Source of the DNA: Kiritimatiellia bacterium | GTDB taxonomy: Bacteria; Verrucomicrobiota; Kiritimatiellia; RFP12; JBMNHG01 | DNA length: 46,641 bases | Direction: 5' to 3' | Assembly: GCA_050950285.1 (NCBI GenBank) | Contig: JBMNHG010000003.1 | Location: forward strand, 802,337-848,977 | In this document: positions 41,980-45,433 of the stretch, piece after piece | How positions within the stretch are numbered: the first letter of the stretch is position 1 | Layout: every line of letters begins with the position of its first letter | Notes under the pieces: generated by a model | What the model was told of the DNA's origin: nothing | The model's input: only the letters and a program-made list of their open reading frames with translations | Databases searched by the model: none | Position numbers and translations under genes: made by a program

Positions 41980-43245
41980 TCAAACGGCGGGGCTACCGGC
42001 CGCCCGGAGCCGGGCCTGTTCGTCCCCGCCTGAGCGGGGCGCGGGCGACGGCGGATGGGACCCTGCCTGTCCTTTTGGCCGCATGGTGCTCACAAGGCGG
42101 AAGCCGATGTTGTTGTTCCGGTTCGACGGGTCGTTGTTGTTGCGATACGCCGAACGGCAGTTCGACGCGGTGTTGTTCCAGCTTCCGCCCCGTTTCACGC
42201 GGTTCGAACCCGAATCCGCCCCTTCTCCGCCCGCCCTAAGATTTTTCCCGACAGTCAGGGTTGACCGAAGGATTCCCCTGAACCCGTACCAGCGCACCCC
42301 GCCTTCGGCTGCCGCCGCGCACATCGCCAATTGTTCGCTGTCTATCTCGCCCGACTGCCACTGGCGTTCCCGCAGCCTGAACTTCCGCCTCGTCCGCTGC
42401 AGACGCGATCTTTGGAAGCGCCATCCGCCGGGAAAAATCCTGAGCCCCAAAAACGCCAGGCCCTCGGACACCGGCGCGGTCACCGTCCGCTCGCCCTTGA
42501 TCTCCAGCCCGCGCTCCCTCTCGACCCATTCGCACACGCCGTCGTGCAGCCGCCATATTTCGGCCTTTCCGTCCGCGAAAAGGACGATGTCGTCCATGTA
42601 ACGGACATAGCCCGGAGCCCCCAACCCCTCCTTGGCGTAATGGTCCAGCCCCGACAGGTAGAAGTTGGCGAACCACTGGCTCGTCAGATTCCCGATGGGC
42701 AGCCCGCGCCCGTCCGGCAGCCCCGGCACCGGATGCCGCACGATCATCTCGATCACCCGGCGGATTTCTTTCTCGCGGAACATGGGCAGGAGCAGCTCCA
42801 ATAGCCTGTCGTGCGGAACGCTGTCGAAATACCGCCGAATGTCCAGCTTGCACGTCCAGCCGTGCCGCCGCACCAGCTCCCGCGCCCGCGCCGCCGCCCG
42901 GTGCGTACCCTTGCCGACGCGGCACGCGTAGCAATCCTCCGTGAACCCCCGCTCCAGCAGCGGCGCGATCACGCCGCACAGCGCGTGGTGCGCCACCCGG
43001 TCCCTCACCGGCGCGCAACTGATCGTGCGCGGCTTCGGGTCCGTCACCCGGAACTGCCCGTACGGCCCCGGCCGCCACGCGCCCGACAGCAGTTCCTCCC
43101 GCAATGCCGCCAACTCCTCTTCCCGCCGCGCCGCGAACGCCGCCACGTCACGCTTGGTGCCGCGCCCCTTCATCACGCGCCTCAGCGCCGCCGCCAGATT
43201 CTCCGGCGACGTGACCCGCTCCCAAAGCTGTCCGTACGATCTCAT
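41980..43245 (-). CDS. DGR reverse transcriptase (ORF extends through the TR)
   Basis: KPRTI..[47 protein letters not shown] (DGR-type SQ), YVRYMDD and FLG. No maturase or endonuclease domain. Confidence 0.93.
   Translation of the reverse strand: [421 protein letters not shown]
42089..42222 (-). ncRNA. DGR template repeat (TR)
   Basis: 134-bp ungapped match to VR. 33 adenines on the coding strand and 11 AAC codons in the target frame. Confidence 0.93.
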
Positions 43246-43811
43246 TCTGTTTTCGAAAGAATCGAAAGATTCGACCGAATCGATTCATCCGATTCCATGA
43301 TTTCCTTGTCGGTCTCATCCGCCCCGCCGCCGTCCGCCCCTTCCTTCTCAGGCGCGGGCGCGGTCACGTCCGGCATCAGCCCCAGCACCTCCGCCCCGTA
43401 ATCCCGGCAGAACGCCTCGCCCACGCCGTCGATCTCCTTCAGCCCCGCCAGCGAGCGCGGCACCCGCCGCGCGATCTCCGCGAGCTGCGCGTTCCGCGCG
43501 ATCGCGTACGCCGGCTTCCCCTCCGCCCGCGCCCGGTCGTTGCGCCAGCGCTTCAGATCGCGGTACAGCGGTCGCCGCGCCTCCTCCAGCCCCTCCTCCG
43601 GGTCAGGCCCCGCGCGGCGGCGGAACCCGTCGCCGTCCGTCGGGGCGTCCCCCAGCAGCAGCGTCAGAGACAGGTGCGGCACGTTGCCGTGCGTGAAGAA
43701 ATGCTCGCGCGCCTCCAGCACCTCCCGTCCGGAGATCGCCTTGCGCAGCGCCTCCTCCGGAAAGCCCTGAAGCCCTTCCTGGTATCTCAGCGTGATCACC
43801 CGCACGTCCAT
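43242..43811 (-). CDS. HRDC-domain DGR accessory protein
   Basis: LYRDLKRWRNDRARAEGKPAYAIARNAQLAEIARRVPRSLAGLKEIDGVGEAFCRDYG is an HRDC pattern. GGAGGA RBS; ATGA overlap with the RT start. Confidence 0.88.
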   Translation of the reverse strand: MDVRVITLRYQEGLQGFPEEALRKAISGREVLEAREHFFTHGNVPHLSLTLLLGDAPTDGDGFRRRAGPDPEEGLEEARRPLYRDLKRWRNDRARAEGKPAYAIARNAQLAEIARRVPRSLAGLKEIDGVGEAFCRDYGAEVLGLMPDVTAPAPEKEGADGGGADETDKEIMESDESIRSNLSILSKTE

Positions 43812-43856
43812 ACTCATTTCCTCCGCAGTCGGCGGCAAACTCGCCACACTGACGGG

Positions 43857-43886
43857 ATACTAAGCCCGCCCGCCCGCCTCAGTCAA
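43857..43886 (-). promoter_or_regulatory. Candidate promoter for the HRDC-RT-TR transcript
   Basis: TTGACT-N18-TAGTAT. Confidence 0.45.
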
Positions 43887-44044
43887 GCGCGGTTTTTCCG
43901 CCGCGCGTTTAGCGCGCCGGAAATGCGCGCCCCCCCGCCATCCGCAGGGGGCCGCCGCCCCCTGCGCGACCCCCGCAAGAACCGTCCGTGTGTCGGCCGG
44001 GCGCGGGCTGCCGCCCTCGCGCCCGGTCCGCACACTCCCGGTCT

Positions 44045-44087
44045 CCCTCTCCCTCTGGGAGAGGGCCGCCTGCCTGCCGCAGGCAGG
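44045..44087. repeat. Two GC-rich hairpins downstream of VR (candidate DGR target-recognition cruciform; REP-like)
   Basis: cctgcctg-ccg-caggcagg (44069-44087) and ccctctccc-tct-gggagaggg (44045-44065). Confidence 0.65.
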
Positions 44088-44109
44088 GGGTGAGGGGAGC
44101 CGTACCCGG

Positions 44110-45433
44110 CTATGGCAGGGTCCTCACAAGGCGGAAGCCGATGCCGTTGTACCGGTCCGACGGGCCGCTGCTGGCGCGACACGCCGAACGGCAGTCCGAC
44201 GCGGTGCTGTTCCAGCCACCGCCCCGCACCACGCGGGACGAACCCGAATCCGCCCCCGTAGGATCTTCGGCCGGACCCGTCCCGAGATTCCCGACGTACC
44301 AGTCCAGGCACCACTCCCACACGTTGCCGTGCATGTCGTACAGGCCCCACGCGTTCGGCGCGTACGAGCCGACCGTTGCCGTGGCGTTCGCCGCGGTGCA
44401 TTCCGTCGCAGGATCGACCCACGCCGTGCCGTTCCACACCCTGCCGCCGTCGTACATGTAACGTCCCAACAGATCAAGCCGCGCGTCGGACGTGGTGTTC
44501 GTCAGGTTCACCGTGCCGTCGTTCAGCGCGCCGGTCGTGCCCGCCCGGCAGGCGTACTCCCACTGAGCTTCGGTCGGCAGGTCGAAGCCCGCCAGTCCGG
44601 TCTTGGTCCGCAGCCGCCCCATGAAGGAACCCGCGGTCACCGCGTCGTTCGCGGGCCAGTCCACGGCCGCGTCGTCCGTGTTGTTGATGTTCTCCCGGAT
44701 GTCGTAGTACGACACCTGCTCCACCGGGCGGGTCAGCCTGTAGTCGTTGTTACTCCACTTCGCAGGCCACGACCGCACGTCGCCCATCACCTGCTGCCAC
44801 TGGCTCTGCGTCACCTCGTAGACGCCCGCGTAGAACGCCTTGGTCAGCGTTACCTTGTGCCAGTCCTCCCGCGTGCCGTCGCGGCCGGTCTCGTTGGACG
44901 GCGAGCCCATCATGAACCCTTCTCCGCCCGTCGGCGGGATCTGGCGCATCAGGATGTGAACCGTCTTATACAGGTCGTTGGTCACACCCCCCGGCACCGC
45001 CTCCGCGCTGGCGTAATAGTAGACGGGATAGCTGTTCGTGGACGGTCCGCCGGTCACGTCCACTGCGCAGTACTGCGGCGGCGCGTTGGTGGACCACGCG
45101 GTCACCCGCGCCTTGGCTGGTCTCCGTCACGTTCTCCGGCCAGTCCGCGCCCGCGTTCCAGACGATGTGCCGATCCGTGCCGGGCTGGATCACCACCGAG
45201 ACGTCGCCGGAGAGGCGCGTCACCGCCGAGTCCGGGATCGCCACCCCGTTGGTCTCGATGCCGAGCGTGACGATGGCCGCCTCGCCCGCGAGGTCGTACA
45301 GCACATCCACCACGCGCGTGCCCGCGCGCTGCGCCATCCGCACGTTCGTCACCTGCGGCACGGCATACGCCGCGCCCGCGCCCATCGTCACGGCGGCCGC
45401 CACGGCCGCCGCTGTTTTCGTTATGCCTCTCAT
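44110..45433 (-). CDS. DGR target: secreted formylglycine-generating-enzyme (FGE-sulfatase/CLec-fold) domain protein; +1 frameshift near 45118
   Basis: Signal peptide at 45433. FMMGSP, YEVTQSQW, PVEQVSY, LPTEAQWEYACRAG, NAWGLYDMHGNVWEWC, RVVRGGGW and GFRLV. Removing 1 nt near 45118 joins ..NVTET to AKARVTAW.. Confidence 0.85.
44123..44256 (-). repeat. DGR variable repeat (VR)
   Basis: Near the 3' end of the target (~45 codons, ending 4 codons before the stop). 19 differences from TR, all opposite TR adenines. Confidence 0.93.

Follow-up and report, generated by a model that had tools for sequence, protein, structure and literature searches.

Diversity-generating retroelements (DGRs) are, to our knowledge, the only natural systems that rewrite a chosen protein surface through reverse transcription, and what we know of their mechanism comes almost wholly from one phage element that needs the accessory protein Avd. 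The locus studied here raises the question of how such a system can be built without Avd in a cellular genome, and what would then set the direction of its sequence transfer. It lies in a Kiritimatiellia bacterium (GTDB lineage Bacteria; Verrucomicrobiota; Kiritimatiellia; RFP12; JBMNHG01; GenBank assembly GCA_050950285.1), on contig JBMNHG010000003.1, within the 46,641 nucleotides (nt) between positions 802,337 and 848,977 of the forward strand; this whole stretch is called the window below. On the minus strand follow one another a target gene with a variable repeat (VR), an HRDC accessory gene, a reverse transcriptase (RT) gene, a template repeat (TR) and a structured spacer-like RNA. The cassette is very probably a chromosomal, Avd-less, HRDC-type DGR of a Kiritimatiellia-like bacterium. 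Its parts, their conservation and covariation, and a variation of the VR in related populations that is restricted to the sites of TR adenines were all observed in this analysis.

An earlier note on this DNA, made from the letters alone, had described a complete, recently active DGR in a cellular setting, with an ungapped 134-bp TR/VR alignment whose 19 mismatches all fall on TR adenines, and with a secreted protein as its target. Re-alignment of the two repeats (Table 1), read on the minus strand at an offset of 2034 nt, gave the same picture: 19 of 134 positions differ, all of them at TR adenines, so that 19 of the 33 adenines are changed (A>G 13, A>T 4, A>C 2) and no other base is. The hypergeometric probability that all 19 mismatches fall on these 33 of 134 positions is 1.5e-14. 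The peptide readings that the note quoted for both repeats are also correct. Separate repeat finding recovered the same pair as a 142-nt repeat (42081-42222 and 44115-44256, 85% identical), the 8 additional 3' bases containing one A>C and one C>G difference. TR and VR agree over their final 20 nt, after which two differences follow within 8 nt, which corresponds to the distinction between the initiation of mutagenic homing site (IMH) of a VR and the related site (IMH*) of a TR. The VR thereby has the target site of a DGR, with an invariant GC-rich 3' end, a flank that differs from that of the TR and a GC hairpin with a GRNA loop. The TR contains 11 AAC codons and its adenines permit about 7e17 protein variants; the VR has neither a stop nor a non-A mismatch to the TR. 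The search for remote VRs that the note had proposed, a BLAST of the TR and its flank against the 4.05-Mb genome of the same organism, returned the TR and a single VR only, the next-best DNA match to the TR having an E value of 0.046 over 23 nt.

The RT carries both of the motifs reported in the note, LPIGNLTSQ and YMDD, and I/LGxxxSQ is a motif of the RTs of the DGR clade. Its best match in the Protein Data Bank (PDB) is a 328-residue chain named 'Reverse transcriptase' (8ub7, E 1.2e-43). Entries 8UB7-8UBE are presumably, as an unconfirmed identity, the bRT-Avd-RNA structures of Bordetella phage BPP-1, the length of 8ub7 being that of BPP-1 Brt. Weaker matches were a group II intron RT (1.6e-18) and a retron-type RT (5.7e-18). 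A tblastn comparison with BPP-1 Brt gives 36% identity. The only NCBIfam model that it matches is group_II_RT_mat (TIGR04416, E 3.6e-35), at 121.7 bits against a cut-off of 300, which does not place it in that family. From these sequence comparisons the enzyme belongs to the DGR clade.

The domain that ends in the VR gives a Pfam FGE-sulfatase match of 6.5e-40 in its 331-amino-acid (aa) open reading frame (ORF), and the best solved relative of the target is the DGR variable protein TvpA (2y3c, sequence E 4.5e-22), in agreement with the FGE/C-type-lectin target of the earlier note. The AlphaFold2 (AF2) model of P0002, the closest full-length homologue (pLDDT 89.9), consists of a disordered signal peptide, a seven-strand beta-sandwich (residues 27-115) and an FGE fold, and also finds TvpA 2y3c as its best PDB match (E 3.2e-18). 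The VR occupies the 3' end of the target, finishing 4 codons ahead of the stop, in a fold of the C-type-lectin type. Confined repeat differences, a DGR-type RT and a target of this class together uphold the identification as a DGR. The target was also considered as a catalytic FGE. The residue aligned with the mutant serine of 2aft (FGE 'C336S mutant') is a hypervariable VR residue templated by an AAC codon of the TR, and of Cys336 and Cys341, the catalytic pair of human FGE, only the second cysteine is kept. Since the position of the first cysteine is hypervariable, a catalytic FGE was rejected as the identity of the target, which is rather a binder like TvpA.

Activity was evaluated among relatives. 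Logan contigs from four metagenome runs (X1, X2, X3 and X5, from four studies), which are assemblies and not reads, were compared with the locus. Of the VR positions listed as variant among these contigs, 20 of 21 are at TR adenines (p 3e-14), and the sole exception, 44158, is a synonymous third position; because contigs conceal rare variants, this is a result between populations. The homologues of the target vary in the same way. In 21 of the 40 best homologues, those at least 75% identical outside the VR, every one of the 19 A-bearing VR codons is variable, with 7.1 residue types on average; the 25 remaining VR codons average 1.4 residue types and 7 of them vary, and the rest of the protein averages 2.1. 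These sequence comparisons are strong evidence that the DGRs of this family work, and the activity that they support is that of the lineage, not that of this copy now. The recent activity that the note had read from the lack of non-A mismatches holds in that sense for the lineage, whereas zero non-A mismatches alone give no date.

The HRDC accessory gene and related cassettes

The accessory ORF is open from a GTG at 43847, and its stop overlaps the RT start (ATGA). HRDC is its only Pfam match. The AF2 model (pLDDT 82.3, 28-row alignment) shows an N-terminal beta-alpha-beta-beta domain, a linker, the HRDC domain and a disordered acidic tail, and its HRDC domain matches that of E. coli RecQ (1wud) with a Z score of 13.7. 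The N-terminal domain (residues 1-55; 43645-43811, minus strand; pLDDT 93-98) is kept in both Avd-less and Avd-containing cassettes. It belongs to no Pfam family, and its matches in Foldseek and VIA-align are weak and mixed (dodecin, ACT-like, MinE; Z at most 4.8). Prediction of an RT-HRDC complex scored 0.00 in two runs, which is evidence neither way. A THF riboswitch inside the accessory gene was taken as a chance match (21.5 bits against a gathering threshold of 36), and Rfam gave no match above threshold over 40500-46641. Upstream of the gene, at 43857-43886 (minus strand), TTGACT-18-TAGTAT resembles a sigma-70 promoter at 9 of 12 positions, as a consensus match only.

No candidate for the bAvd family PF22296 was found in the genome of the organism, which is 99.35% complete, and its five matches to PF05635 are all below the cut-off (best 30.3 against 33.8 bits). 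The term 'complete' therefore fits the locus as an HRDC-type cassette and does not fit it if Avd is counted among the parts. Such an architecture has been described: of the 372 DGRs surveyed by Wu et al. (2018, PMC5758913; in the part available), 14 contain HRDC, and roughly half of these 14 have avd as well. This is their 'Architecture C', for which Treponema denticola is the type, and FGE-type targets account for 71 of the 372. The locus matches both this architecture and this target class.

Relatives of the RT were gathered from one genome per species (the best 80 of 97) and from a metagenome scan (another 80), and their TR/VR pairs were sought with a script for ungapped repeats with adenine-directed mismatches. 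Pairs were found in most loci long enough to contain them. The order VR, accessory gene, RT, TR, with the TR 3' of the RT match, is found in 41 loci, the window among them, which were chosen by eye from the script table; they include a cultured strain of Oligosphaera ethanolica, and their RT identity goes down to about 36%. The remaining DGRs fetched, mostly from Firmicutes (RT 26-32% identical), have the usual order VR-TR-RT. All 19 near-clade loci tested have an HRDC ORF immediately upstream of the RT; in one locus its score is just below the Pfam cut-off. Farther relatives have, among the ORFs submitted, HRDC with a bAvd-like protein (9), bAvd alone (6) or HRDC alone (2). As the near clade has HRDC without Avd and farther relatives have bAvd, Avd would have been lost in the subclade of the window.

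The closest studied system is the TvpA DGR of T. denticola. Both are cellular rather than phage elements and both have an FGE-fold C-type lectin as target with the VR at its C-terminus; the available text of Nimkulrat et al. (2016, PMC4891356) also describes HRDC instead of Avd and an overlap with the RT gene. They differ in gene order, the accessory gene lying between TR and RT in T. denticola according to the same text, whereas the TR and spacer are 3' of the RT here. They also differ in the number of targets, seven further remote ones there, as far as the portion of Wu et al. (2018, PMC5758913) at hand goes, against one VR here, and in the additional N-terminal beta-sandwich of the present target. 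Other DGRs of the same RT clade with both HRDC and Avd (metagenome loci such as L141, L144, L151 and L176) share the order target-VR, HRDC, RT, TR and the two-domain accessory protein, with RTs 36-47% identical. They differ by a bAvd-like gene (PF22296) between HRDC and RT, found in 9 loci and in none of the window's subclade. BPP-1 shares the RT motifs and a 134-nt TR, but it is a phage element with a tail-fibre target (Mtd) and the order mtd-avd-TR-brt; it requires Avd, absent here, and its TR and spacer precede the RT gene rather than follow it.

The named homologues of the target come from Kiritimatiellia metagenome-assembled genomes (MAGs). Of 40 other genomes searched within the window's order, 6 contain the RT; the single genome of the same genus (92% complete) does not. 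RTs 85-94% identical (L016, L023, L025, L027 and others) were found on short contigs of MAGs labelled Hydrogenedentota, Opitutia, Verrucomicrobia and Planctomycetes. Such close similarity across MAGs labelled as different phyla points to either mis-binning of short, repeat-broken DGR contigs or mobility of the cassette, and the patchy presence fits both. A full-text literature search joining 'diversity-generating retroelement' and 'Kiritimatiell' found no paper. The locus is thus a DGR of described but rare architecture in a lineage with none found reported by name, and an element of this kind is to be expected in Kiritimatiellia and related bacteria.

RNA and DNA elements beside the repeats

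About 120 nt of conserved non-coding sequence follow the TR. To study them, 19 non-identical loci were aligned 3' of the TR, and a structure was drawn by hand and then tested against slid partners and shuffles. In this structure 83% of the cells of the alignment are paired, against 34-47% with slid partners, and 14 of the 27 pairs show a compensatory change, values reached by 0 of 500 shuffles. The helix that joins the sequence just 5' of the TR to a spacer strand (42226-42236 with 42043-42055) has 11 pairs, 6 of them with compensatory changes, and 87% of cells paired; the hairpin at 42024-42039 has 6 pairs, 4 with compensatory changes, and 93% of cells paired. This covariation supports the conservation of the helices next to the TR, whose role in priming is a prediction from the sequences. 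The conserved element with a terminal hairpin at 41972-41997 probably forms the 3' part of the DGR RNA. Directly after the region of this RNA there is a 78-aa ORF (41675-41911, minus strand) with a signal peptide and the C-terminal sequence GTTIVVR; L116 has a conserved counterpart at the corresponding position, with the ending GTAILIR, and the homology with relatives ends just beyond it, at about 41662-41731.

The arrangement resembles that of BPP-1. A bioRxiv preprint (10.1101/2023.10.23.563531) describes, in the part available, a BPP-1 template:primer duplex of seven canonical and three non-standard pairs. A duplex of the same composition can be drawn here, as can the second duplex to the sequence 5' of the TR and the hairpin followed by adenosines that the same part of the preprint reports. 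Another shared feature, also stated in the accessible text of Naorem et al. (2017, PMC5703328), is that the primer strand fits the IMH of the VR better than the IMH* of the TR; in BPP-1, Sp47-56 matches VR118-126 over nine contiguous bases. In the window, the primer-like strand of the spacer makes 10 of 10 Watson-Crick pairs with the flank of the VR, against 7 of 10 with that of the TR. Over the 19 loci the means are 9.0 and 7.3 of 10, the VR flank fitting better in 17 loci, equally in 1 and less well in 1. One position of the TR flank forms a C-C mismatch with the primer strand in 19 of 19 loci, and the VR has a G there in 18 of 19. When the 11 distinct flank/primer types are compared, the average is 8.6 for own pairs and 6.2 for cross pairs.

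One reading of this asymmetry is that the 10-nt primer-like strand acts as a guide in the Avd-less HRDC clade, covarying more tightly with the VR flank, 2 kb away in a different gene, than with the TR flank beside it, to which it has to pair for priming. We consider this a reasonable possibility, to which we would give somewhat less than an even chance. The pairing of an RNA primer with the IMH was proposed by Naorem et al. (2017, PMC5703328; in the part available) to explain the directionality of BPP-1, so the idea is not new and the addition made here is its covariation in a distant Avd-less clade. If the strand is a guide, the choice of target and the direction from TR to VR would be set by RNA-DNA pairing, the system could be retargeted through two short sequence changes without need for Avd, and the comparative covariation would be independent support, from a distant lineage, for that idea.

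The roughly 300 nt that separate the target from the accessory gene are rich in hairpins, and the DNA fold of 43950-44125 has a z score of -4.33. The proximal hairpin has a 5-bp stem and lies 11 nt past the end of the VR/TR homology; the long imperfect one is conserved in relatives with altered stems. Of 40 family loci, 17 have a perfect hairpin with a stem of at least 5 bp and a GRNA loop within 200 nt of the VR; among 800 shuffles, 6 do. A GRNA-loop hairpin behind the VR is shared with BPP-1. As described in the available part of Guo et al. (2011, PMC3240598), hairpins with GC stems of 7-10 bp and GRNA loops, 4-34 bp from the VR, raise the efficiency of homing; the stem of the proximal hairpin here is shorter than that range. 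Two more perfect hairpins, CCTGCCTG-CGG-CAGGCAGG and CCCTCTCCC-AGA-GGGAGAGGG, lie between the proximal and distal ones (44045-44087, minus strand) and are missing from L018. A CCTCTCCC...GGGAGAGG hairpin recurs as far as L031, whose RT is 47% identical.

A proposed mechanism and its rivals

By analogy with phage BPP-1, each biochemical step, including the role of the HRDC protein, may be pictured as follows. A transcript of the accessory gene, the RT and the TR-spacer, or of the TR-spacer alone, would fold at two places, the 3' flank of the TR pairing with the primer-like spacer strand and a second spacer strand pairing with the sequence just 5' of the TR. The RT, aided by the HRDC protein in place of Avd, would copy the TR to cDNA while misreading adenines, and the cDNA would replace the VR at the 3' end of the FGE-fold C-type-lectin gene. 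The GC-rich GRNA-loop hairpins behind the VR might assist this replacement, as might the pairing of the RNA primer strand with the VR flank, which, being better than that with the TR flank, would set the direction from TR to VR.

The locus and its roughly 40 relatives form a compact cellular cassette, without Avd, with an HRDC protein, and with the TR and a structured RNA after the RT. The covariation of the relatives reveals which RNA helices are kept and a primer strand that tracks the target flank, and makes two questions directly testable, namely what replaces Avd and what sets the direction. The main added value is therefore comparative, in the RNA elements and the guide-like complementarity found in an Avd-less clade; the single locus is flawed by a frameshift in its target.

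Several observations weigh against this account. The target ORF is frameshifted at 45118 in the assembly, which leaves its function in the source genome unassured, and no Avd was found although it is essential in the only DGR studied biochemically. The 21 variant VR positions are those in the listed rows of a table of contig variants that has 319 further rows. The single-sequence RNA fold 3' of the TR has a z score of only -0.84, 40 of 200 shuffles being equally or more stable; as this folding energy is not significant, it is the covariation that argues for the structure. The 19 aligned loci include many that are closely related, and together they represent the 11 flank/primer types. A crude automatic scan also did not repeat the asymmetry, the VR flank fitting better in 7 loci, equally in 4 and less well in 12 for the distant clade with RT before TR, and in 13, 5 and 15 for other DGRs; the automatic junction finder was visibly wrong at several loci, and the scan neither supports nor refutes the generality of a better fit to the VR.

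The frameshift deserves the closest attention. From 45433 to 44110 the target measures 1324 nt, which is no multiple of three, and the ORF with the signal peptide (44966-45433, 155 aa) and that with the FGE domain and VR (44110-45105, 331 aa) are in different frames. All the full-length homologues examined (435-443 aa, with a signal peptide) are unbroken, and P0002 reads ...ENVTETAKARVTAWSTN... straight over the break, which places a one-base insertion at 45118. Contigs without this T were found in 4 of 4 runs, at depths of 6.45 of 12.5 (X1), 53.3 of 64.4 (X2), 26 of 26 (X3) and 11.9 of 11.9 (X5). Since such contigs occur in every run and the homologues are unbroken, the frame is commonly intact in nature. 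X1 is the run that best represents the window's DNA, and there only about half of the depth is without the T, which may leave room for a real T-bearing variant. With the insertion, either the diversified domain is not exported here, as in a recent pseudogene, or the T is an assembly error. The secreted target of the earlier note hence stands for the family, with its signal-peptide-bearing homologues, and not for this copy as assembled, where one nucleotide parts the signal peptide from the VR. This leads to the alternative of a decaying DGR, whose target has become a pseudogene and whose perfect-looking TR/VR pair reflects a recent last retrohoming only. The split ORFs, the contigs without T in all four runs (at full depth in X3 and X5), the T-bearing form that may exist in the reads of X1, and the three intact Pfam-supported ORFs of 1102-1245 aa, from which the assembly is not full of indels, all speak for decay. 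Yet the RT, the accessory gene, the TR and the spacer elements are all intact, the VR has acquired neither a stop nor a non-A mismatch, and a single-base indel is equally typical of an assembly error. Decay is a serious contender that we hold to be somewhat less probable than its opposite.

The other alternatives concern the RT. Its long ORF, of 421 aa (41980-43245), takes in the TR in the target frame and gives a Pfam FGE-sulfatase match at residues 342-385. It could be that this ORF is a real fusion of the RT with a translated, TR-encoded, lectin-like C-terminal tail, as the same read-through occurs in L016, L017, L020 and L030. Nevertheless, the TR starts about 10 nt past the last RT residue that can be aligned with relatives, and among 13 loci the RT frame runs through the TR in 5, stops inside it in 2, stops 28-48 nt ahead of it in 5 and is uninterpretable in 1. 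Read-through in 5 of 13 is near the one-in-three chance expected for a frame, the two loci with a stop inside the TR (L018 and L021, RT identity 84-86%) are in another frame, and the TR is stop-free in the target frame by origin, in a genome of about 70% G+C. The fusion is very unlikely, and from this comparison of sequences the read-through was judged incidental and the 421-aa ORF not to encode a longer enzyme. Still less credible, to the point of being negligible, is a plain duplication of a gene fragment beside an RT of the group II intron or retron type, without mutagenic retrohoming. Its basis is the NCBIfam match to group_II_RT_mat and the presence of four other RT copies in the genome; against it stand the score of that match, far under the cut-off, the 28% identity of the other copies to the DGR RT, the clear preference for 8ub7 over a group II intron RT, the purely A-directed mismatches and the population variation of the VR at A sites. 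The four other copies (L012, L013, L014 and L015) are near-equal, are spread over four contigs within ORFs of 402-544 aa, and probably represent a multi-copy group II intron.

Features and genomic surroundings

Table 1. Features of the window, with positions counted from its first letter.
Feature	Position	Strand	Remarks
Target gene	44110..45433	-	signal peptide, ~90-aa beta-sandwich, FGE-sulfatase/C-type-lectin domain ending in VR; split ORFs
Additional base	45118	- (T on + strand)	frame shifts between ...ENVTET and KARVTAWS...
Variable repeat (VR)	44123-44256	-	last 44 full codons of target before RTLP-stop
VR 3' flank GGACCCTGCC (IMH-like)	44114..44123	-	exact complement of the primer-like spacer strand
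Proximal hairpin AGCCG-GGTA-CGGCT	44098..44111	-	GRNA-type tetraloop; overlaps stop codon; DNA fold
Long imperfect hairpin	43989..44035	-	GGCA loop (GGTA in relatives); inverted repeat between target and accessory gene
Accessory gene	43242..43811	-	189 aa from the ATG common to relatives; Pfam HRDC 2.7e-18; alignment, AF2, fold match
DGR reverse transcriptase	42230..43245	-	~330-338 aa; LPIGNLTSQ and YMDD; profile and PDB matches
Open RT-frame continuation through TR to first stop	41980..42229	-	judged incidental from the 13-locus comparison
Upstream strand of spacer duplex, GGGCGGGCGGA	42226..42236	-	just 5' of TR; analogue of the BPP-1 'cPRT Stop' duplex
Template repeat (TR)	42089-42222	-	33 adenines, 11 AAC codons; repeat alignment
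TR 3' flank GCACCATGCG (IMH*-like)	42080..42089	-	template strand of predicted template:primer duplex
Primer-like strand GGCAGGGTCC	42058..42067	-	then conserved CCCATCC; alignment and covariation
Spacer strand TCCGCCGTCGCCC	42043..42055	-	partner of 42226-42236
Hairpin CCCCGC-TCAG-GCGGGG (42024-42039), then conserved ACGAACA	42017..42039	-	covariation
Conserved GGTAGCC and terminal hairpin GCCCCGCC-GTTTGA-GGTGGGGC	41972..41997	-	alignment, RNA fold
DDE transposase	32963-34222		left of low-GC island
Type III restriction enzyme (ResIII)	34968-37529		in low-GC island
DNA methylase	37492-39387		in low-GC island
RadC	39399-40133		in low-GC island
YbjN-like protein	40255-40680		in low-GC island
AraC gene	41090-41530		right of low-GC island, then DGR

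The window lies at the end of contig 3 of a genome of 12 contigs. It has about 70% G+C, with an island of 36-45% at about 34.3-41 kb, next to the DGR (Table 1). Its Pfam-supported genes are of housekeeping and mobile kinds, among them three beta-helix giants, an acyl-CoA synthetase, a Cys/Met PLP enzyme, an MFS-HEAT protein, a ThiE-HAD protein, an SNF2 helicase and YidC. No phage structural family was found among the 45 window ORFs scanned, a scan that covered families other than those of PHROGs, so the cellular setting proposed in the note agrees with this chromosomal neighbourhood. A phage origin was rejected: the 155 phage records with an RT match are all below 60% identity, the best 25 listed being at 30-38%. 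The longest ORF of the window (2949 aa, 18293-27142, minus strand) was set aside as spurious antisense, being Arg/Pro-rich and without a Pfam match; the plus strand there encodes an NHL-repeat protein, the MFS-HEAT protein and ThiE-HAD.

A Y2-type (IS91-like) transposase (45869-46639, minus strand; Pfam Y2_Tnp 7.1e-28) runs off the end of the contig, which was therefore probably broken in a repeated insertion sequence. About 380 nt upstream of the target start, at 45816-45844 (minus strand), TTGACA-17-TATGGT is a sigma-70-like match at 10 of 12 positions, again by consensus only. Perfect tandem duplications flank the DGR region, of 69 nt (two copies, 45612-45749) on one side and of 54 nt (two copies, 40843-40950) on the other. 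The 54-nt units have a 25-nt inverted repeat in common with 41043-41067, and 40310-40341 shows a weak inverted similarity to 45608-45639. These duplications and inverted repeats may be the ends or scars of mobile DNA.

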